The notes beneath the pieces are model-generated. The model saw nothing but the letters and a program-made list of their open reading frames with translations. It had not been told where the DNA came from and did no database searches. DNA of 64,000 nucleotides from Escherichia coli (GTDB lineage Bacteria; Pseudomonadota; Gammaproteobacteria; Enterobacterales; Enterobacteriaceae): NCBI RefSeq assembly GCF_024223415.1, contig NZ_CP100500.1. One strand, written 5' to 3'. Each line of letters starts with the position of its first letter. Position 1 is the stretch's first letter. The position numbers were made by a program, and so were the translations under genes. Below, one piece after another: positions 75 to 45,661 of the stretch.

Positions 75-1178
75 TCAGAACTGATAAGTCAAACCAACAG
101 CGACAATATCATCGGTTAATACATCAGTTCTTTCAGTGAATTGATTCTTATCAAGCAGGTTGATTTTATAGTCTACGTATGTAGACATATTTTTGTTGAA
201 GTAATAAGCAGCACCGACTTCAATGAATTTTTCAATGTATCCGTCATTATGTTTTTCAGGGATACCAGTTTTGGTGGAAAGGTCTTTGGCTTTCGACTGG
301 ATATAAGCAAGAGACGGGCGCAAACCAAAGTCGAACTGATACTGTGCAACTACAGCGAAATCTTCAGTTTTATTGGCTACACCGTTGTAGCCGCCGGGCG
401 AGTACTTGATTGCGCGGGTATTACGTGTTTCACCATAAGTGGCTGCCAGGTACAGATTATTCGCGTCATATTTTACGCTGGTAGCCCACTGTTCAGCTTT
501 TTTACCTTTACCAAAAGTCGTCGCTTCCTGTGCATTGGTGCGATCGGCTGCACCATATGCAGCTACAAAACCAAAGCCTTCATATTCATAACTGACAGAG
601 CCGCCAACACCGTCGCCGTTTGAAGTGCCTGCATTGTCACGCTCATTTTTACCCAGATACTGAACCGCAAAGTTCAGTCCATCAACCAGACCGAAGAAGT
701 CGGTATTACGGTAAGTGGCAACACCACCTACACGACCCACGAAGAAGTTATCCCCGTTAACAGAACCAGGCCCAAATTCAGGGAGGACATCAGTATAGCT
801 TAATGCGTCATACACCACGCCATAGTTACGACCATAATCCAGAGAGCCAATATTTTCTAGTTTCAGGCCAGCGTATGCCAGACGGGTTTTGTCTCCTGCA
901 GAGCCATCTTTTTCTGCCTTGTTGCCTTTGAATTCATATTCCCATTGACCAAAACCAGTTAACTGATTGTTGATTTGGGTTTCACCTTTGAATCCAAGAC
1001 GGGCATAAGTTCCATCACCTTCTTCTTTGGCGTTAGAAGAAAAGTAATGTTTACCCACTACTTTGCCATATAAATCCAGTTTATTACTGTTTTTATTATA
1101 TATTTCTGCTGCATTTGCAGACATTGCCAGAAATACTGATGCTGCTACAGCAGAAAGTGCCACTGTTAAATTTTTCAT
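75..1178 (-). CDS. Outer-membrane porin, OmpC/OmpF/PhoE family (NmpC/OmpD-like prophage moron)
   Basis: 367 aa with signal peptide [23 protein letters not shown] and C-terminal beta-barrel ending GLTYQF; SD GAGGA 5 nt upstream; sits upstream of the lysis genes as nmpC does in DLP12. Confidence 0.9.
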
Positions 1179-1776
1179 TTTTTATCCTCTGGTGGGAGTT
1201 AATTGGACGACAAAATGCTATCAGGATGAAAATTTAATTTCTGTGTATAATGTATACAAGGAAAATTAAGGAGTCCGATTCTTTATATGTGACCACCATC
1301 ACAAAATAAGAAGTCATGCAAGCTAATAAATAGATGGCTATCTTTCACTCAAAAAATTAAGATCAATCTTTTTTATTAGAAGTGCTAAATATATTTAATT
1401 ATTTGGGGTTGTGAGTTATTTATATAACCTTAATAAAGACATTACTTTTGAAGAAAAATACGTGCATAGAAGAATGCATAATCTTTAATTACATCTTGCC
1501 AAGCGTCGCAACAATCCAGAGATTGTATGTGGGGTGAATCATGCAGCATGCAGGGTATGAACAAACACTTTACGATCGTAAAAGTATGCATATCATGGTA
1601 AGAGTGGTTCCTACGCCACACAACTTAAACCCGCAGCCAGGCGGTTTTTTACATCGAAAATCTGCACCGGACATTAAGCTCTTTGGCGGACCAGATAAGA
1701 GGTGCGCTTAGTTGGGTTTGTCGGGCTTTCTCTGAGATTTGCGGTATTAATCCCGTAACGTTATTATGCTGCTCGA

Positions 1777-1852
1777 GGCCCTTTAGCTCAGTGGTGAGAG
1801 CGAGCGACTCATAATCGCAAGGGCGCTGGTTCAAATCCAGCAAGGGCCACCA
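1777..1852 (+). tRNA. tRNA-Ile2 (anticodon CAT, lysidine type; ileX/ileZ-like)
   Basis: Cloverleaf with 7-bp acceptor ggccctt/aagggcc, D stem gctc/gagc, anticodon loop ctCATaa, T loop ttcaaat, encoded CCA; close to E. coli ileX. Confidence 0.85.
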
Positions 1853-1853
1853 A

Positions 1854-1927
1854 CCGCCACTAGCTCATCAGTACAGAGCATCAGCCTTCTAAGCAGACGG
1901 TGCGGGGTTCGAGTCCTCGGTGGCGGA
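1854..1927 (+). tRNA. tRNA-Arg (anticodon TCT)
   Basis: Acceptor ccgccac/gtggcgg, D stem gctc/gagc, anticodon loop ctTCTaa, T arm cgggg-ttcgagt-cctcg; one A-A mismatch in the anticodon stem; no encoded CCA. Confidence 0.75.
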
Positions 1928-1933
1928 TATCAT

Positions 1934-2009
1934 GCCGACTTAGCTCAGCAGGCAGAGCAGTTGATTTGTAATCATCAGGTCACCAGTTCGAACCCGGTAG
2001 TCGGCACCA
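1934..2009 (+). tRNA. tRNA-Thr (anticodon TGT), thrU-like, possibly slightly degenerate
   Basis: Acceptor gccgact/agtcggc plus ACCA, D stem gctc/gagc, anticodon loop ttTGTaa, T loop ttcgaac; one mismatch each in anticodon and T stems. Confidence 0.6.
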
Positions 2010-2017
2010 TATTTTCA

Positions 2018-2040
2018 GGCTCGCATTTGCGGGCCTTTTT
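2018..2040 (+). terminator. Rho-independent terminator after the tRNA cluster
   Basis: Hairpin ggctcgc-attt-gcgggcc followed by TTTTT; a second weaker hairpin plus T7 follows at ~2059-2078. Confidence 0.5.
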
Positions 2041-2404
2041 CATATCTGAACAATACAGCCGCTTTGTGCGGTTTTTTTCATTTGCACAACAGGTAAGAGT
2101 ATTGAATCCGCAGACCTCGCGGAACTGGTGAAAGGTGCCGCGCAGTGCTCTTATCGTTGTGGTGAAGCTCAATGGCGAGCTAGCAGATAGGCGACAGTGA
2201 AAATACTAGTCATGTATCTGACCGCCGCGCGTACTGCAATCGGCAGCGCACCGATGGAAGCCGGTTCGATTCCGGCCGCCACAACCCAAACTGAGCCGTA
2301 GCCACTGGCTGTCCTGAACTCCTCAGTGATAGTTACGCTGCGGCCTTCTTTTTCCCCTTCCTAATACAAGAACTACGCAATCCGTTACTGGCGGAGGCGT
2401 TGCT

Positions 2405-2620
2405 ATGAAATCCATGGATAAGATAACAACGGGTGTCGCCTATGGCACCTCGGCAGGCAGTGCCGGGTACTGGTTTTTGCAGTGGATTGATCAGGTCAGT
2501 CCGTCACAGTGGGCTGCTATTGGTGTGCTGGGGAGTCTGGCACTGGGCTTTCTGACTTATCTGACGAATCTGTACTTCAAAATAAGAGAAGACAAGCGTA
2601 AGGCTGCACGGGGAGAGTAA
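2405..2620 (+). CDS. S: Class II holin (pinholin, phage 21 S21-like) with dual-start motif
   Basis: 71 aa, [30 protein letters not shown]... matches S21 as recalled; two TM segments; SD GGAGG upstream; M1-K-S-M4 dual start. Confidence 0.9.
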
Positions 2621-2624
2621 TTCA

Positions 2625-3176
2625 ATGACTCAAAACTATGAACTGATTGTGAAAGGGATCCGCAATTTTGAGAATAAAGTTACGGTAACTTTAGCGTTAC
2701 GGGACAAAAAACGCTTTGACGGTGAAATTTTTGACCTGGACATCTCGCTGGACCGTGTTGAAGGTGCCGCGCTGGAGTTTTATGAGTCAGCAGCCAGAAG
2801 GAGCATCAGACAGGTCTTCCTGGATGTTGTTGCCGGGTTATGTGAAGGGGATGAGCAGTCGCCGGAAAAGCGCCCCGTAATTTTAGAGGCGCAGAATGTG
2901 TGGATAACCTACAAAGGAAAGCTACCGGGAAGAATTACTGGTTCTCTGAAGACGCCACCGACGGCATTGCGGTCAGAAAAAGATGATATTGAATCGCCCA
3001 TTGAAAAACTGGAGGGCAGCGTAGCTGATCTGAATAAAAAATTGTCGGTGCTGATCCCTTCTGAAGATGAAAAAAAACGCCGCGATGAGCAGTTTGCGGC
3101 GTTTTACGATTATTGCATTGAAGTTACTCGCAGGAATTTTGTGAAGATTTTTGAGGAGGGTAAATCTCTTCAGTAA
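2625..3176 (+). CDS. Hypothetical protein (moron inserted between holin and endolysin)
   Basis: 183-aa ORF starting 4 nt after the holin stop with SD GGGGAGAG; no family recognised; AT-richer than flanking lysis genes. Confidence 0.6.
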   Translation: MTQNYELIVKGIRNFENKVTVTLALRDKKRFDGEIFDLDISLDRVEGAALEFYESAARRSIRQVFLDVVAGLCEGDEQSPEKRPVILEAQNVWITYKGKLPGRITGSLKTPPTALRSEKDDIESPIEKLEGSVADLNKKLSVLIPSEDEKKRRDEQFAAFYDYCIEVTRRNFVKIFEEGKSLQ

Positions 3177-3384
3177 GCTTAATGGCGGACGCTGCAATTA
3201 ATTCAGGAAGGTCCGCAAGGTCATCTGTCAGTGGATATGATGAAAAATCGGCGGCAGTTCTGTTAAGAATCGCTTTAACTAATTCCTTTTCCTTCTCCGG
3301 CAACAAGTTGATTAGAGCTACGACTGCTTGCCTGAGTGCGATTAAATCAGCAAAAGTTTGTTTTGGTAGATTTGTGTAATCCAT
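3124..3384 (-). CDS. Hypothetical small acidic protein, convergent with and 3'-overlapping the previous ORF
   Basis: 86 aa from ATG at 3384 (MDYTNLPKQTF...) with SD GAGGTG 3 nt upstream; the six-frame ORF extends to 3507 but that part overlaps the endolysin start and lacks an RBS. Confidence 0.5.
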   Translation of the reverse strand: MDYTNLPKQTFADLIALRQAVVALINLLPEKEKELVKAILNRTAADFSSYPLTDDLADLPELIAASAIKLTEEIYPPQKSSQNSCE

Positions 3385-3497
3385 AGTCACCTCTGTGTTT
3401 ATCAGATTGACATCCTCCTCCCGCCAGTGCCCATCACTGGTGAGGTAAGATTTAACATATCCAGGGTTCAGAAACCGATAAATCCTGATAAATATCC

Positions 3498-4031
3498 ATG
3501 AGCGCAAAAATCAAATACGGCCTGTCAGCTGCTGTTCTGGCGCTGATTGCTGCAGGCGCGTCTGCTCCTCAAATACTTGACCAGTTTCTGGATGAAAAAG
3601 AGGGTAACCACACTACGGCATACCGCGATGGTTCCGGTATATGGACCATCTGTCGTGGTGCCACAATGGTGGATGGTAAGCCCGTCATACCGGGAATGAA
3701 GCTGTCGAAGGAAAAATGCGACCAGGTTAACGCTATTGAACGTGATAAGGCGCTGGCATGGGTGGAGCGCAATATTAAAGTACCACTGACCGAACCACAA
3801 AAAGCGGGTATAGCGTCATTCTGTCCCTATAACATTGGCCCCGGTAAGTGTTTCCCGTCGACGTTTTATAAGCGGCTTAATGCCGGTGATCGTAAAGGTG
3901 CCTGTGAGTCGATTCGCTGGTGGATTAAGGACGGTGGGCGTGATTGCCGCACACGTTCAAATAACTGCTACGGACAGGTTATTCGTCGTGACCAGGAAGC
4001 AGCACTTGTGTGCTGGGATATCGACAGATGA
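3498..4031 (+). CDS. R: SAR endolysin (phage lysozyme, R21-like)
   Basis: 177 aa; N-terminal signal-anchor LSAAVLALIAAGASAP followed by lysozyme-like motifs (EGNHTTAYRDGSGIWTICRG); paired with a pinholin. Confidence 0.9.
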   Translation: MSAKIKYGLSAAVLALIAAGASAPQILDQFLDEKEGNHTTAYRDGSGIWTICRGATMVDGKPVIPGMKLSKEKCDQVNAIERDKALAWVERNIKVPLTEPQKAGIASFCPYNIGPGKCFPSTFYKRLNAGDRKGACESIRWWIKDGGRDCRTRSNNCYGQVIRRDQEAALVCWDIDR

Positions 4032-5191: not shown

Positions 5192-5225
5192 AATAAGAGC
5201 CAGTCATTAAAAATACCTGGATTTA

Positions 5226-5248
5226 GCCTCGCATTCGCGGGGCTTTTT
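5226..5248 (+). terminator. Rho-independent terminator
   Basis: Hairpin gcctcgc-attc-gcggggc followed by TTTTT. Confidence 0.5.
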
Positions 5249-5546
5249 ATTGCCATTACAAAAGCCACTCCCTACAGAGTGGCTTTGATAATGGCTTATA
5301 CCCTACACGGGATAACTTAACTGATATCCCTTTTAACGGATAAAGGTATTCAAGCCTGACACATCATGCGCTGTATCGTCGCCGTATTCCCGTATTAACA
5401 GAGACCGTAGCCCGACGGGGAACTCCTTCTGCGCGAGTGTGCGGGAATAATCAAAAACGATGCACACCGGGTTTTACTGTGCTGACAGACGCAGGGTTAC
5501 CCTCATAGTCGCTTTTCCGGTGCGATGGTGGAAGAAACCGGGATGT

Positions 5547-21593: not shown

Positions 21594-24500
21594 ATGGGTA
21601 AAGGCAGCAGTAAGGGGCATACCCCGCGCGAAGCGAAGGACAACCTGAAGTCCACGCAGTTGCTGAGTGTGATCGATGTCATCAGCGAAGGGCCGATACA
21701 AGGACCGGTGGATGGATTAAAAAGCGTGCTGCTGAACGGTACGCCGGTGCTGGACAGTGAGGGGAATACCAATATATCCGGCGTCACGGTGGTATTCCGG
21801 GCCGGTGAGCAGGAGCAGACGCCGCCGGAGGGATTTGAATCCTCCGGCTCCGAGACGGTGCTGGGTACGGAAGTGAAGTACGACACGCCGATTACCCGGA
21901 CCATCACGTCGGCAAACATCGACCGTCTGCGCCTGACCTTCGGTGTGCAGGCACTGGTGGAAACCACCTCAAAGGGGGACCGGAATCCGTCGGAAGTCCG
22001 CCTGCTGGTTCAGATACAGCGTAACGGTCGCTGGTTAACGGAAAAAGACATCACCATTAAGGGCAAAACCACTTCACAGTATCTGGCTTCGGTGGTGGTG
22101 GATAACCTGCCGCCGCGCCCGTTCAGTATCCGGATGCGCAGGATGACACCGGACAGCACCACAGACCAGCTGCAGAACAAAACGCTCTGGTCGTCATACA
22201 CCGAAATCATCGATGTGAAACAGTGCTACCCGAACACGGCACTGGTCGGTGTGCAGGTGGATTCGGAGGAGTTCGGCAGCCAGCAGGTGAGCCGTAATTA
22301 TCATTTTCGCGGGCGCATTCTGCAGGTGCCGTCGAACTATAACCCGCAGACGCGGCAATACAGCGGTATCTGGGACGGAACGTTTAAACCGGCATACAGC
22401 GATAACCCGGCCTGGTGTCTGTGGGATATGCTGACCCACCCGCGCTACGGCATGGGGAAACGTGTTGGCGCAGCGGATGTGGACAAATGGGCGCTGTATG
22501 TCATCGGCCAGTACTGCGACCAGTCGGTGCCGGACGGCTCTGGTGGCACGGAGCCGCGCATCACCTGTAATGCCTGGCTGACCAGGCAGCGTAAGGCGTG
22601 GGATGTGCTCAGTGATTTCTGCTCGGCGATGCGCTGTATGCCGGTATGGAACGGGCAGACGCTGACGTTCGTGCAGGACCGACCGTCGGATAAGGTGTGG
22701 ACCTATAACCGCAGTAATGTGGTGATGCCGGATGATGGCGCGCCGTTCCGCTACAGCTTCAGCGCCCTGAAGGACCGCCATAATGCCGTTGAGGTGAACT
22801 GGAGTGACCCGGATAACGGCCAGGAGACGGCGACAGAGCTTGTGGAGGACACGCAGGCCATTGCCCGTTACGGTCGTAACGTCACGAAGATGGATGCCTT
22901 TGGCTGTACCAGCCGGGGGCAGGCACACCGCGCCGGGCTGTGGCTGATTAAAACGGAGCTGCTGGAAACGCAGACCGTGGACTTCAGCGTGGGTGCCGAA
23001 GGGCTTCGCCATGTGCCGGGCGATGTCATTGAAATCTGTGATGATGACTATGCCGGTATCAGCACCGGTGGGCGCGTGCTGGCGGTGAACAGCCAGACCC
23101 GGACGCTGACGCTCGATCGTGAAATCACGCTGCCATCCTCCGGTACCACGCTGATAAGCCTGGTTGACGGAAGTGGCAATCCGGTCAGCGTGGAGGTTCA
23201 GTCCGTCACTGACGGCGTGAAGGTGAAAGTGAGCAGTGTTCCTGACGGCGTTGCTGAATACAGCGTGTGGGGGCTGAAGCTGCCGACGCTGCGCCAGCGC
23301 CTGTTCCGCTGCGTGAGTATCCGTGAGAACGACGACGGCACGTATGCCATCACTGCCGTGCAGCATGTACCGGAAAAAGAGGCCATCGTGGATAACGGGG
23401 CGCACTTTGACGGCGACCAGAGCGGAACGGTGAATGGTGTCACGCCGCCAGCGGTGCAGCACCTGACCGCAGAAGTCACCGCAGACAGCGGGGAATATCA
23501 GGTGCTGGCGCGCTGGGACACGCCGAAGGTGGTGAAGGGCGTGAGCTTCCTGCTTCGCCTGACCGTGGCAGCGGATGACGGCAGTGAGCGGCTGGTCAGC
23601 ACGGCCCGGACGACGGAAACCACATACCGCTTCAGGCAACTGGCGCTGGGGCGTTACACGCTGACGGTCCGGGCGGTAAATGCCCGGGGGCAGCAGGGAG
23701 ACCCGGCGTCGGTATCGTTCCGGATTGCCGCACCGGCAGCGCCGTCGCGGATTGAGCTGACGCCGGGCTATTTTCAGATAACCGCCACGCCGCATCTTGC
23801 GGTTTACGATCCGACGGTACAGTTTGAGTTCTGGTTTTCGGAAAAGCGGATTACCGATATCAGGCAGGTTGAAACCACAGCCCGTTATCTTGGTACCGGA
23901 AGGCAGTGGCTTGTCTCCGGCCAGAATATTAAACCTGGCCATGATTATTACTTTTATATCCGCAGTGTTAACACTGTCGGTAAATCGGCATTCGTGGAGG
24001 CAGTCGGTCGGGCGAGTAATGATCCTGCCGGTTACCTTAATTTTTTCAGGGGGGCGATAAATAAAACGCATCTGGGACGGGAGATCAATGAACGCATTGA
24101 TGCCTCTGCACGGCGCACTGAAGTTGAGCAACTGGAGAATGCGATTAACCGCGAAATGACGCAGCTGGAGAAAGATGTGAGGCAGCGTGCGGAGCGTGAT
24201 ATCGCAGAGGTGACGAAAAAAATCACGGCGTCTGAAAACAGCATAACGGAACTGGTGGCGAAAAAGAGCGGTGAACAGTCAATGGCCATTGCGGAAGTTG
24301 ACAGAAAAGTTGACAGGATGGGAAGCGAAATCCGGCAGACAGTAAGCAGGAGCACGGAGGAGAACAGCCGACAGATAGCGCAGATCAGACAGTATGTTGA
24401 TGATAAGGGAAGTCAGATCACACAGAGCACGGATAAAAAACTGGGATCCTGGAATGCCAGCATTGAGCAGATACAGAAAGTTCAGGAGGACACGCGCCGG

Positions 24501-42028: not shown

Positions 42029-45000
42029 TTAATGGAAAATGACGTCAGGTGCGCTTAACGCCTCACTCAAATCAAACACATCAAGTTCGGCAAAGGTGAC
42101 GGATTTATTGTCACGGTACACTCGAAGAGAACGGAAGCTCATTAGCGCTTTGCTATCAACATTGTAGTGGTTAAAACCGGGTGAAAACTTAAGGACCAGC
42201 CGGTACTCACCCAGGTTATAGACAAATGCGTCCTCATAGCCTGACTCCCAGCCTTTGTATCGCATTCCCATAAGTTGCCCAACGGTAGCGGATTTACCTT
42301 CCCAGCGAGTCAGGCTGTTACTGGTTGACTCGTCAGGTGTGAGCAGCACCGTGCGGCGCGACAACTGGCGAAAAGGCGGCATAATTTCGTAATCGGCAAA
42401 AAGCTGTGCAAATTCACTGCGCATTTCTGCTGTCATTTCTAACGGGTGGGCAATGCCAATCAGAGCGTCCGCAGGCAGGTCAATTGGCTCATCTTGCGCA
42501 TTGCAGAACTCCCCCTCTGCGGCCACACGAAAGGCTTTGAGTAAACAACGCGGTTCATTTGCCGGATAAACCCCCCATATTAATCGCTGGGTAACCAGAC
42601 GGGTAAAGGGATGATTAACAAACAGAGAATGAAAATCTGCCAGCGACCAGCGTCGGGTGGTACGTAGGGCCGTTTCAAGACGCGGGAGCAGGTTTTTGCT
42701 CACCTGAGTAGCATCTTTTTTTAGCCCTTTTAGTCGGGCCAGTGCCTCGGGCGCTTTCAGTTGATCGTCATCGGCGCGCAAACGGGGAACGCTTTTCTGG
42801 CGAACGTTTTGCTGATCAAAGATAACCGGGTTGAGATTTTCATCGAAGCGAACGGTAAACTGCCGGGGACCAAAATCAAAACTCAACGCCTGCGGATCAT
42901 CAAGGCCCAGGGTTGGGACTAATCTGTCCGCTAGCTCTTCCTGGCTTAGCCCGCGATTTTCTGCGACCACCTGAAGAAATTCCGCCGCGTTATCACGTAA
43001 GGGGCGGGATTTAGCCCGTTGCGATATATGATGCAGCTGTATCAGCGCCATATCATTATTCATCAGGGTAAGGATGTTCAGGCCGCTGACAGCACGGGCA
43101 GATTTGCCTTCTTGTGGCCAGGCGAGGATCTGTGTCGTCAGATCCCGTGCCGTGCTTTCGTCACCAAAGAGACTTAACGCCAGAAATGCCCAGTTGTCTT
43201 TTGCGGGGGCACCAGCTTGTTGCCACGCAGTGAAGAGATCCCAAGCAAAAGCTGCCAGCGTTTGTGGCTGGCAGAACGTTTTCAGTTGTTCCAGCCCGCT
43301 ATAAAAACGTCCCCCCTGGGTAAAGCGCAGCATTTCGCCGATAATTTCCAGAGCGTCATTGGTAACAGTTTGATTATTAGTGATAAGGCGCGGCCTGGAC
43401 CACATTTGCGGATGCCAGAAATCAGGGGCTTTTGGAATGCGTGCCGGGTAAATGTCCATTGGACCCTGTTTAAGCAACTGCTCCAGGGCAGACCATACAT
43501 CTGTACGCTGCCAGCGGTTTGCCACGGTTTGTAGCAATTCGCCATGTCCCTGTTCGTACAGTAAACGCAGGGCAAGTAATGCGGCTTCGCTATTATCGCT
43601 GGGTTTGGTAAAGACAAGAGGGATAAGTGCACTAGCCGTATGTTCCGGCCATTGTAAAATCCACTGGCGAGCCAGATCACGCTGCGCCGCGAAACGTCGC
43701 CAGACGTGGGCAACAGGCAGCGCCAGTTCTGTTGCGCCAAAATTTAAAATTAACGGAAATGTTTCTTTTGGACGATGTGAAAAAGCCAACAGCAGACCTG
43801 GTAGCGCATCCAATCCGAGGATACTGAGAAAATAGTCCTCACCCGCGAACAGATGCTTTTTCTCATTGATACGCAGCCAGAAGGTCAAAGCCATCTCACG
43901 CGGCAACTGTGCCAATAAATACAGGTTCCAGACACTCTTTTCCGGACGATAATGTGAGTAGTTGTCATTTTCCCATATGTTAATTAACGCTTCTATGTGA
44001 CCGCTGCGGAGCGCCTGTTCTGCTAATTGTGCTTCCGGGGAGTTCCAGCCATTCAGGATCTCTTCAACCCGCCCCTGGTAGTAATGCCACTGAACAAAGA
44101 GTGAATTGCGTGCAGCATCCAGTTTTCCGGGGAGTATATAATTCAGAAACAGCCATACATCATCCCCAAAACCCAGTTCCTGTAATACAACTCGTCCACT
44201 TTTTTGTTCCATGCGTTGCGCAAGAGATTCCGTGCTGAAATAACGGGCAGGCTCAGTGGCGGCAAGCCTCTCTTGTTCGCCTGGTTGCCAGTAAACTTGC
44301 GGAGTTAATTCGAGCGGTGCCAAATCAAGACGTGGAGCTGTCATTTTTTTCTTACTACGCCACGGTGGTGAAACGAGGATTTCTGGCAGATTGCTGTTAT
44401 CGGTGCCATCAATAACCGGTTTGGGCGGTGCCGATAAATAACTCTTCAGCACTGACTGGGGTTGAGTACTTAACCACGGCATCACTTCTGCTGCCAGTTG
44501 TGGCTGCGATGCCATCAGCGTTTGTAACAGCGCACGCCAGTATTCATCGCGTGCTTTTTGCTGTGCAGGCAGCTTTTTGTCTTCGATGATTGGATAACCA
44601 GGGCGGGCTGGTGGTTCTGTTAACGCCAGCAGTTCTGCCAGTGCGGCGAGCGTCGCATGGGGGAAGTTTTTATGGTATTTAGCTACACGTTGCAGGCTGG
44701 GTTTGTTTTTATCAGCCACCAGTAGCAAGGTGCGGATGACTTGCGGATGGTTAATTTGTACCAGCAGACTGCCGCAATCTTCTTTATGGGCATACATCGC
44801 GAGGCGCGGAATGGCTGCCAGTCCTTGTTCGCGCAAAAGGGCGGCGCAGGCCGCGTAGCCGAAGTGGTTTTCATGCGACATGTAGCTGGCTTCTCGATCG
44901 CTAAATATATCCTGGCTCCAGTAGTGTTCGAGTTTTCTCACCGCTGTGGGGTCATTAGCAACAACTTTTAACCACTCCTTAGAATGAAAATGAGTTCGCG

Positions 45001-45661
45001 GGCATTCAAGGCCTACCAACTCATTGGCTATTTCTGGTTTTTCCGGGAGGATCAGCGCAATAAAAGGGCGGCGAACTTTGGTTATTCCTGGTAGTGCGGC
45101 AATGAGTTTGTCGGCGCAACGCTGCCAGCAGCTTTCCTCTGCCAGAGAGAGATGCTTACGCAGTCGGAGATCGAATTCGTTATAGGTTTCTGAGCGATAA
45201 CCATAGCCATAATCCTCGTCCTGATACTGCAATGTCACTACCAGAGGATCACTCTCATAACACCGCGCAATAAACTGGCGTGCAATCACCACCTCAGTCG
45301 CATATTCCAGCCCCTCTTGTTGGACGATTTCGTCGAGCAACTGTTGGCTGTCATTTTGCGCGATACAGGCTAGCGCCGCCATTGTCCGGTCCGGGATTGA
45401 GGGTTTGTGTTCGCCGATCAAGTTGATGGCCTGCGTGATGGCGGACTGCCACTCCAGTGAAAAATTCTCATAACGCCAGACAATGTTTTTTTTCTTCTCA
45501 GCTTTTTGTAGCAATTCATCACCCAATGTCTGGATGAGACTTCCAGTGATAACGGACACTGGTTCGCCCGGCCAGCGACGATGACTGAGCGGCGTTTTGC
45601 CTTTTTTATATTTCAGTTCCAGTTGGGCGTTATCCGCCAGCCACGGTAATTCCTTGTCCAT
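42029..45661 (-). CDS. yehI: YehI (DUF4132 protein)
   Basis: 1210 aa; paralogous to MolR over much of its length. Confidence 0.85.
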   Translation of the reverse strand: MDKELPWLADNAQLELKYKKGKTPLSHRRWPGEPVSVITGSLIQTLGDELLQKAEKKKNIVWRYENFSLEWQSAITQAINLIGEHKPSIPDRTMAALACIAQNDSQQLLDEIVQQEGLEYATEVVIARQFIARCYESDPLVVTLQYQDEDYGYGYRSETYNEFDLRLRKHLSLAEESCWQRCADKLIAALPGITKVRRPFIALILPEKPEIANELVGLECPRTHFHSKEWLKVVANDPTAVRKLEHYWSQDIFSDREASYMSHENHFGYAACAALLREQGLAAIPRLAMYAHKEDCGSLLVQINHPQVIRTLLLVADKNKPSLQRVAKYHKNFPHATLAALAELLALTEPPARPGYPIIEDKKLPAQQKARDEYWRALLQTLMASQPQLAAEVMPWLSTQPQSVLKSYLSAPPKPVIDGTDNSNLPEILVSPPWRSKKKMTAPRLDLAPLELTPQVYWQPGEQERLAATEPARYFSTESLAQRMEQKSGRVVLQELGFGDDVWLFLNYILPGKLDAARNSLFVQWHYYQGRVEEILNGWNSPEAQLAEQALRSGHIEALINIWENDNYSHYRPEKSVWNLYLLAQLPREMALTFWLRINEKKHLFAGEDYFLSILGLDALPGLLLAFSHRPKETFPLILNFGATELALPVAHVWRRFAAQRDLARQWILQWPEHTASALIPLVFTKPSDNSEAALLALRLLYEQGHGELLQTVANRWQRTDVWSALEQLLKQGPMDIYPARIPKAPDFWHPQMWSRPRLITNNQTVTNDALEIIGEMLRFTQGGRFYSGLEQLKTFCQPQTLAAFAWDLFTAWQQAGAPAKDNWAFLALSLFGDESTARDLTTQILAWPQEGKSARAVSGLNILTLMNNDMALIQLHHISQRAKSRPLRDNAAEFLQVVAENRGLSQEELADRLVPTLGLDDPQALSFDFGPRQFTVRFDENLNPVIFDQQNVRQKSVPRLRADDDQLKAPEALARLKGLKKDATQVSKNLLPRLETALRTTRRWSLADFHSLFVNHPFTRLVTQRLIWGVYPANEPRCLLKAFRVAAEGEFCNAQDEPIDLPADALIGIAHPLEMTAEMRSEFAQLFADYEIMPPFRQLSRRTVLLTPDESTSNSLTRWEGKSATVGQLMGMRYKGWESGYEDAFVYNLGEYRLVLKFSPGFNHYNVDSKALMSFRSLRVYRDNKSVTFAELDVFDLSEALSAPDVIFH

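Follow-up and report, generated by a model that had tools for sequence, protein, structure and literature searches.

Phage T4 makes two stable RNAs of 120-140 nucleotides (nt), species 1 and 2 (rnaC and rnaD), which have termini like those of transfer RNA (tRNA), are processed by host tRNA enzymes and are co-transcribed with the phage tRNA cluster. YrlA, a non-coding RNA (ncRNA) encoded next to rsr and also found in some phages, forms its Ro-binding stem from ends that lie at the anticodon side; according to what is reported from the work of Chen et al. in RNA in 2014, this Ro60 partner mimics tRNA and has a D-arm/T-arm elbow seen by tRNA enzymes. In phage lambda, RNase III sites are said to lie in the late leader, going by the title of a paper of Daniels et al. 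from 1988. RNase III is known to act at the hairpin of the lambda N leader (Steege et al. 1987, as cited in PMC5371410). Here we analyzed a 64,000-nt stretch of Escherichia coli DNA (RefSeq assembly GCF_024223415.1, contig NZ_CP100500.1; hereafter the window), in which a tRNA-shaped element, consisting of a core of 133 nt and a hairpin (H1) on its 5' side, lies upstream of the holin gene S. On balance we lean to the view that positions 2085-2288 are an RNA gene cassette in the leader of a prophage late (lysis) operon, rather than the remnant of a tRNA.

Results

Structure and covariation of the core

The original prediction had noticed a T arm followed by the 3' strand of an acceptor stem in the spacer before the holin gene, and took it for an orphan without a matching 5' half, possibly left by an earlier tRNA in an otherwise empty slot. 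Both parts are present, gccgg-ttcgatt-ccggc at 2260-2276 and cgccaca at 2277-2283, and the sequence is tRNA-like as had been said, with an acceptor stem, a D arm and a T arm; the orphan status fell. TGTGGTG (2158-2164) complements CGCCACA (2277-2283), including one U-G pair, and the minimum free energy fold of 2150-2295 closes exactly the 9-base-pair (bp) stem around four arms (z = -3.2; 1 of 200 shuffles equal). Judged from sequence comparison, the T arm is thus the 3' part of a complete structured RNA (Table 1), which together with H1 occupies the slot. In the place of the anticodon loop, the inserted hairpin branches off within an internal loop, 47 nt in total (2187-2233): the anticodon-like stem opens to a nearly invariant 3 x 7 internal loop (AUA / GCGCGUA).

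Table 1. Features of the element and its surroundings in the window
Feature	Position	Strand	Basis or detail
tRNA-shaped core, 133 nt	2156-2288	+	fold, covariation, own covariance model
Acceptor stem, 9 bp	2156-2164 with 2277-2285	+	fold
D arm, GCTC-AATGGC-GAGC, preceded by AA	2167-2180	+	fold
Anticodon-like stem, 4 bp	2183-2186 with 2234-2237	+	homologue comparison
Inserted hairpin, 37 nt, 20-nt loop	2190-2226	+	
Loop palindrome, ACTAGT	2205-2210	+	
Variable-arm hairpin, 5 bp, AUCGG-CAGCGCA-CCGAU	2239-2255	+	
T arm, gccgg-ttcgatt-ccggc	2260-2276	+	
Encoded CCA	2286-2288	+	
Leader CACAAC, direct copy of the 3' acceptor strand	2085-2090	+	folds of all variants
5' long-stem hairpin H1, 64 nt	2092-2155	+	fold; stem GGTAAGAGTATTG / CAGTGCTCTTATC, 13 bp
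Two-tier hairpin H3 (conserved), after the element and before the holin gene	2295-2344	+	fold, z = -4.98
Gram-negative porin, complete gene	75-1178	-	Pfam Porin_1, 425 bits
AT-rich spacer, 600 bp	between porin and tRNAs		
tRNA, anticodon CAT (Ile2/ileZ-like)	1777-1852	+	ARAGORN; Rfam tRNA 73.6 bits
tRNA-Arg (TCT)	1854-1927	+	ARAGORN; Rfam 49.8 bits
tRNA-Thr (TGT)	1934-2009	+	ARAGORN; Rfam 61.9 bits
Terminator-like hairpin 1, 8-bp stem	2017-2036; with T run to 2041	+	terminator scan
Terminator-like hairpin 2, 6-bp stem	2057-2073; with T7 to 2080	+	terminator scan
P21-type holin S, first downstream lysis gene	2405-2620	+	Pfam PF04971, 119.9 bits
DUF1327 protein, then phage lysozyme	3' of holin		Pfam

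For an alignment of 38 distinct cores (alignment A1), the structure was assigned from the variants and not from the fold. The anticodon-like stem occurs there as GCAG/CUGC, GCGA/UCGC, GCAA/UUGC and GGG/CCC, and the nine-position stem of the inserted hairpin as GGC-GACAG/CUGACCGCC, UUCACGG/CCGUGAG, UUUUGCGG/CCGCAAAA and others. A first hairpin taken from the fold (CAGATA/TATCTG) was replaced, as the homologues favor GGCG.CAG/CUG..CGCC together with the stem GCAG/CUGC. Paired cells make up 95.2% of the helix cells in the 38 sequences, against 82% after shuffling. Both sides have changed in 22 of 39 pairs, a count that none of 500 shuffles reached and that dropped to 5-9 when the 3' partners were slid, with pairing then at only 30-46%; compensatory changes are present in every helix. 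G-U pairs account for 73 cells in 18 pairs and A-C for 10 cells in 5 pairs. Since G-U by far outnumbers A-C, the pairing is kept by the + strand alone, on which the holin gene also lies, and this argues for an RNA and against a DNA cruciform. The D-loop GG and the T-loop UUCGA are invariant. The covariance model built from this family scores 154.9 bits on the window, with one copy only, and also picks up a genuine tRNA at 1773-1853 (33 bits).

A candidate pseudoknot would join CAGCGCA of the variable-arm loop to GCGCGUA of the internal loop; both are almost invariant, and the few variants at loci L008, L009 and L043 are uncompensated. Columns 21 and 120 of alignment A1 hold the base that precedes GG in the D loop (U or C) and position 59/60 of the T loop (U or C). 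Judged by reading the alignment, the two change together in most of the 38 sequences and in more than one context, with locus L099 as an exception. This co-change could correspond to the 'variable pocket' of tRNA, or be mere linkage.

A self-complementary loop in the inserted hairpin

In all 38 aligned sequences, and likewise in all 35 distinct hairpin versions, the loop hexamer of the inserted hairpin (ACUAGU in the window) is complementary to itself. Six hexamers occur across the family, namely ACUAGU, UCUAGA, UCGCGA, ACCGGU, GCUAGC and UCUGGA (with wobble pairs), and both sides have changed at two of the three pairs of the palindrome in alignment A1. Because neighboring loop nucleotides cannot pair within one chain, a palindrome that varies and is nevertheless kept points to pairing between two copies, as would be the signature of an intermolecular kissing loop. 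Symmetric kissing loops were argued from palindromes in the same way for the RNAs OLE and GOLLD, and were validated by cryo-electron microscopy (cryo-EM) (PMC12286853). By the criterion of that study, the covarying self-complementary loop makes our element functionally like OLE and GOLLD, not a member of their families. Like the phage- and prophage-borne RNAs ROOL and GOLLD, which often lie near tRNA islands, it is carried by phages; ROOL, GOLLD and OLE, in contrast, are 4-6 times larger, not tRNA-shaped, and without sequence or secondary structure in common with it. No match to their family models was found in Rfam (window, E up to 10; two divergent members, E up to 5). With one supported self-complementary site, the simplest assembly for the element would be a head-to-head dimer, not a cage.

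The 5' hairpin and the scaffold of the leader

The apex of H1 (about 2105-2142 in the window) measures 30-90 nt in homologues, where at least 10 unrelated apices stand between conserved stems, and the stems covary as a whole (GGTAATGGCACTG/CAGTGCCATTACC; GGAAATCGCTTTG/CAAAGCGATCCCC; GGAGAGAGTATTT/AAGTACTCTCTTC). The CACAAC leader can pair with GTTGTG (2156-2161), by which H1 grows to some 19-20 bp (in locus L068, 20 bp with perfect pairing), and this pairing competes with the acceptor stem. Loci of the L121 type have changed all three partners jointly (CACAAT / ATTGTG / CACAAT), and the centroid fold of lambda uses the leader pairing.

The element starts about 5 nt after terminator hairpin 2 and, in phage HK75, directly after the annotated tR'. 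The N-leader and late-leader hairpins of lambda lie at the same genomic positions as the element, and the lambda alignments show a homologous closing stem and 5' hairpin as well. The interiors of lambda measure less, about 90 nt (N leader) and 67 nt (late leader), and contain neither a D arm nor a T arm. In the lambda late leader (44,787-44,941, right after tR'), the same CACAAC leader and the same H1 (44,787-44,865) precede a covarying 9-bp closing stem (GTTGTGCTG/CAGCACAAC) around the unrelated interior, and the H1 apex differs by one base from that of phage INT59. This lambda scaffold may be what Daniels et al. 1988 reported as RNase III sites. A third interior, of ~190 nt, sits in the same scaffold in CUS-3, IME10, Huey and E. 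coli STEC711 (locus L144, 1284-1478) and has no Rfam match (few variants are known), and in SPN9CC two real tRNAs occupy the same slot. The lambda, tRNA-like, CUS-3 and SPN9CC scaffolds all share the next hairpin, H3, a third conserved structure in the late leader that is nearly invariant across lambda (about 44,949-45,001), HK75, SPN9CC and the window. Our family covariance model found no match in the lambda leaders or in the CUS-3-type interior.

The H1 apices of loci L075, L014 and L005 contain T-arm-like hairpins with an acceptor-like 3' strand (AGCGGTTCGATTCCGCT-TGTTTGG; GCAGAGTTCGATTCTCTGC-CGGGCGT). These fragments are what the original prediction had imagined, namely tRNA 3' halves that are truly orphan. 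The string TGCTCTTA in the 3' strand of H1 resembles lambda boxA; we rejected a boxA reading, since the stem has unrelated, covarying sequences in the L068, L035, L093 and L095 types. An antisense target for the hypervariable apex was likewise discarded: no complementarity of at least 13 nt occurs elsewhere in the 64-kb window, and 11-12-mers are at chance level.

Distribution and genomic contexts

HK75 and several other phages match the region 2072-2349 at 96-97% identity. In the Skatevirus phages of Salmonella (Skate, seszw, INT55/59, Akira) the match is confined to 2143-2285, at 94-96% identity; there the flanks are unrelated, and the element sits on the opposite strand, with the tail-tube gene on one side and a hypothetical gene on the other. 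Such similarity of an E. coli prophage to Salmonella siphoviruses, within flanks that are unrelated, points to horizontal spread under constraint. The original prediction had named conservation of this spacer in homologues as grounds for its own refutation; conserved it is, though not as ordinary spacer. About 140 loci came from two exact-word scans of IMG/VR; the core segments extracted from them include 72 distinct ones, or 67 once trimmed to the core. Near-full-length copies (at least 80% coverage) are present in 157 of 5426 complete E. coli genomes, with no annotated feature at the copies in the 25 matches inspected. In a phage collection the core occurs in 92 records, unannotated or overlaid by spurious open reading frames (ORFs). 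Such overlays (37 aa) are called 'hypothetical protein' and once 'polyubiquitin-A' (locus L003, 1527-1640; ON470589.1, 20017-20149; Skate, 22273-22401). A coding explanation was rejected: the ORFs that cover the element, of 37 aa (- strand) and 34 aa (+ strand), would be broken by the 1-nt loop indels of the homologues. A scan of species-representative genomes gave only Klebsiella pneumoniae, Superficieibacter electus and one contig of a metagenome-assembled genome (MAG). About 340 nt compared of that contig (L147, JAUVQU010000080.1; binned as Cellvibrionaceae) are identical to a P22/HK75-like enterobacterial phage late leader, so that it is probably mis-binned or a contaminant. The element is thus sporadic, phage-borne and enterobacterial.

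Some copies stand alone, as in the Skatevirus phages. In INT59 the neighboring genes lie on the strand opposite to the element, a promoter (TTGACA-17-TAGATT) is predicted ~90 nt upstream, and a GC hairpin with a T run follows ~100 nt downstream. In loci of the L093 type, between Q/HNH and the holin gene, terminator hairpins flank the element on both sides, and in L021/L017-type loci the element is on the strand opposite to terminase and portal. These predicted promoter and terminator signals and the opposite strand in INT59, with the flanking terminators in L093, suggest that the RNA itself is the product and not just a signal in an mRNA. An STnc100-like RNA (46.3 bits; gathering score 47) lies at 5205-5314 (- strand) of L093, after the element and its terminator and before the holin gene. 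Small RNAs in general find a docking place in the late leader.

In three lambda-immunity phages (L114, L130, L131) the core stands where the N-leader hairpin, lying between nutL and N, would have its apex, within flanks identical to lambda; the lower stem GGCTTTGGGGTGTG / CACACCACCAAAGC is common with the lambda N leader. In phage seszw, the element is kept by all listed genome-reduced mutants (down to 36 kb), despite the deletion of two genes close by, seszw_29 and seszw_26, which are the next ones out from its flanking genes seszw_28 and seszw_27. Genome reduction aimed at annotated genes only (PMC9825161), and the retention of the element is therefore weak evidence.

Comparison with known RNA families

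Neither ARAGORN nor Rfam calls the core as a canonical tRNA (RF00005) at threshold. In the window, ARAGORN reported nothing but the three upstream tRNAs and no transfer-messenger RNA (tmRNA); Rfam listed no tRNA match at 2156-2288 at E up to 10, where the best hit of a clan alone was kept. The core has the acceptor, D and T arms with the conserved elbow that characterizes tRNA (G18 G19; T54 Psi55 C56), and an acceptor stem of 9 bp, not 7, and lacks the 5-bp anticodon stem and 7-nt loop. A tRNA pseudogene or attachment-site (att) fragment would be a partial tRNA with unselected pairing, whereas here both halves and 22 compensatory pairs are found.

The only Rfam match to the core is tmRNA (RF00023; 20.2 bits, E = 7e-6, gathering score 47), local through the T arm; against two divergent members (E up to 5), tmRNA was again the only match, at 10.1 and 7.8 bits. 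Like the tRNA-like domain of tmRNA, the element has an acceptor stem and a T arm with a canonical T loop. It differs in its size (133 nt versus about 360 nt), in having no tag ORF and no pseudoknots, and in its complete D arm. The G3-U70 pair of tmRNA is absent: the third stem pair is U-A, A-U or once U-G in the 38 sequences (columns 6/133), and if the acceptor stem is read as 7 bp, the third pair (columns 8/131) is likewise U-A or A-U.

T4 species 1 and 2 are likened to the element by description only, and we know of no dimerization or 5' long-stem hairpin in them. The topology of YrlA is permuted, whereas the ends of the element lie at the acceptor stem; no YrlA match was found in Rfam, and no Ro60-like ORF or rsr among the neighboring genes as read, without a profile search. 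In the tRNA-miRNA TMERs of MHV68 and in engineered tRNA scaffolds, a tRNA-shaped module is combined with a hairpin whose ends are set by tRNA enzymes; these systems belong to a eukaryotic virus or are synthetic, and their hairpin is 3' of the tRNA-like part and freed by RNase Z. In our element the hairpin is 5' of the tRNA-like part, unlike in TMERs, and a payload role for it would be an idea by analogy. The core does not resemble an Hfq-type prophage small RNA (sRNA) such as Pas, STnc100 or IsrK, as no terminator directly follows it on the 3' side in the window; a match to IsrK (18.7 bits) covers the upstream terminators only.

The element is unnamed: no Rfam family covers it, and no record annotates it as RNA. 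Its sequence strings occur in no paper searched and concept searches came back empty, in a literature that leaves most subscription journals outside its scope, so that an older description is possible; the sequence is not in the Pas sRNA supplement.

Surroundings of the late leader

The layout that the original prediction had given for the region holds in its main lines. ARAGORN and Rfam both find the three tRNAs, the terminator scan finds the two hairpins behind them, and Pfam identifies the holin downstream; the stx genes are absent, with no toxin-sized ORF between the tRNAs and the holin gene in the ORF list of the window. ARAGORN names the CAT tRNA Met from its anticodon alone, and its counterpart in the 98%-identical segment of E. 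coli GF60 is annotated as tRNA-Ile by PGAP; Stx-phage homologues carry ileZ. The terminator scan called 5 sites in the region versus 1.2 expected from shuffles. The hairpin at 1631-1650, once proposed as tR', has a 4-bp stem (ccgc/gcgg plus T6) and was not called. If tR' directly follows Q as in HK75, it would fall outside the window: in GF60 the Q gene ends ~180 nt past the porin stop, ~110 nt left of the window start.

A recombination hotspot had also been proposed, and a mosaic junction indeed lies at about 2024-2083. To its left, bases 1-2023 share 98% identity with GF60; to its right, bases 2084-2700 share 99.5% with E. coli F1022. The two parts are joined in no complete E. coli genome. 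The segment 2010-2080, from the 3' end of tRNA-Thr through the terminators, gave a weak Rfam match to the rimP leader (21.9 bits) beside the equally weak one to IsrK. By analogy with the Pas sRNAs near prophage tRNAs, it could be a tRNA-trailer-derived, Hfq-type sRNA.

The porin gene separates the Q region from the late tRNAs and is oriented against them, so that the late transcript has to run through it in antisense. Between the DUF1327 and lysozyme genes, a 127-aa ORF at 3124-3507 (- strand) has no Pfam family; the homologous position in F1022 is annotated as a hypothetical protein.

Discussion

The best reading of these data is that the element is a host-processed tRNA mimic that self-associates. 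The RNA would be made only when Q-modified polymerase passes the upstream terminators. The lambda N-leader hairpin and late leader have been reported as RNase III sites, and the long stems found here would by that precedent be RNase III substrates; host RNase III would cut the 5' hairpin, and RNase P together with 3' trimming would cut the tRNA-like ends. A stable tRNA mimic would thereby be released, with a T loop that may serve as substrate for tRNA-modifying enzymes, and two copies would join head to head through the palindromic loop. Excision would also process the late mRNA leader. Our preferred and most likely guess as to function is that the RNA occupies or titrates a host factor that recognizes the shape of tRNA, for example a nuclease directed at tRNA, a synthetase or a processing enzyme.

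A number of points weigh against this reading. Expression, processing and dimerization are all steps that we infer. Two main haplotypes in the middle of the molecule hold much of the covariation, so that independent events are fewer than the cell counts suggest; many pairs nonetheless show three to five pair types, and the mutual information for tertiary pairs is dominated by the two haplotypes. The stem is followed by an encoded CCA in some lineages only, the window and the N-leader subfamily included. The combination of a 9-bp acceptor stem and a 5-bp T stem exceeds any known tRNA substrate, and RNase P cleavage is therefore not assured. No gene for a partner protein co-occurs with the element in the contexts read. 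Moreover, lambda and CUS-3-type phages keep the same scaffold around unrelated interiors, and in late leaders the scaffold could be under selection, rather than its tRNA-like cargo.

This last point leads to the main rival, which we consider possible but clearly the less probable: a purely cis-acting leader module, in which the long 5' hairpin and the closing stem are processing signals for RNase III and RNase P. Such a module would detach the leader (qut/tR' in the late, nutL in the early operon) and set the stability or translation of S or N, and the tRNA-like interior, functionless in itself, would be one of several interchangeable fillers. A scaffold kept with three unrelated interiors (lambda, tRNA-like and CUS-3 types) speaks for it, as do the position of the element exactly at the RNase III-processed N-leader hairpin of lambda and the real tRNAs in the slot of SPN9CC, which would likewise be excised. 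Stand-alone copies with their own predicted promoter and terminator and no downstream gene do not fit it, a mere cleavage signal would need neither the near-invariant loops CAGCGCA and GCGCGUA nor a covarying palindrome, and the core is 94-96% identical across phage families with unrelated flanks. A cis role in the leader is compatible with that of a decoy and does not exclude it.

A DNA-level element is improbable. The inverted repeats, CACAAC repeats and hexamer would then be a site for recombination or protein binding (an attC-like hairpin or an operator), as might be suspected from the CACAAC direct repeats at both ends of the unit common to the contexts, from AAC...GTT at the base of the long hairpin, which recalls integron attC cores, and from the cassette-like swapping of interiors. 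The strand asymmetry of the wobble pairs contradicts this, the conserved D-loop GG and T-loop UUCGA fit only an RNA elbow, the orientation always agrees with the local transcription signals, and no recombinase gene is associated with the element in the contexts read.

We give still less credit to the view of the original prediction, a decayed tRNA gene or a tRNA/att recombination scar without function. The core is not called by ARAGORN or the Rfam tRNA model, it lies at a mosaic junction, and isolated T-arm and acceptor fragments do occur in the H1 apices of some relatives (L075, L014); against this stand the 5' half, the compensatory changes in every helix, a complete RNA with 94-99% identity in unrelated phages, its conservation over the 92 phage records and 157 complete E. 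coli genomes, and the independent transcription signals predicted in some phages. Least probable of all is a decoding tRNA with an intron or aberrant anticodon arm, despite the acceptor stem, D arm, T arm and class-II-like variable arm, and CCA in several lineages: there is no 7-nt anticodon loop but a 4-bp stem opening to the 3 x 7 internal loop and hairpin, excision of the 48 columns concerned (36-83; 47 nt in the window) leaves no loop, ARAGORN finds nothing although it tolerates introns, and a 9/5 acceptor/T geometry does not suit elongation factors.

Returning to the self-associating tRNA mimic, we tentatively raise the bolder proposal, doubtful as it is at present, that it represents a new class of phage ncRNA: a small tRNA mimic forming a symmetric dimer via a covarying kissing loop, freed by RNase III and RNase P, and acting in trans as decoy or inhibitor of a host tRNA-recognizing factor, e.g. 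a tRNA-cleaving defense nuclease. The N- and late-leader sites of lambda would then be empty or alternative versions of its docking hairpins.

The element would add a structured RNA family to some of the best-studied phages (HK75, P22-like, lambda-like and Skatevirus), in which genetics is easy, and would let the RNase III hairpins of the lambda N and late leaders be read as sites for exchangeable RNA cargo. At 133 nt and with a single palindromic loop that covaries, it would rank with the smallest natural RNAs for which there is evolutionary evidence of homodimerization, and is of a size suited to nuclear magnetic resonance, crystallography and, with scaffolds, cryo-EM. It also corrects the annotation of phage genomes, in which ORF callers mislabel it. 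If it is true that the RNA mimics tRNA towards a host factor, the finding would bear on phage counter-defense against tRNA-targeting systems.

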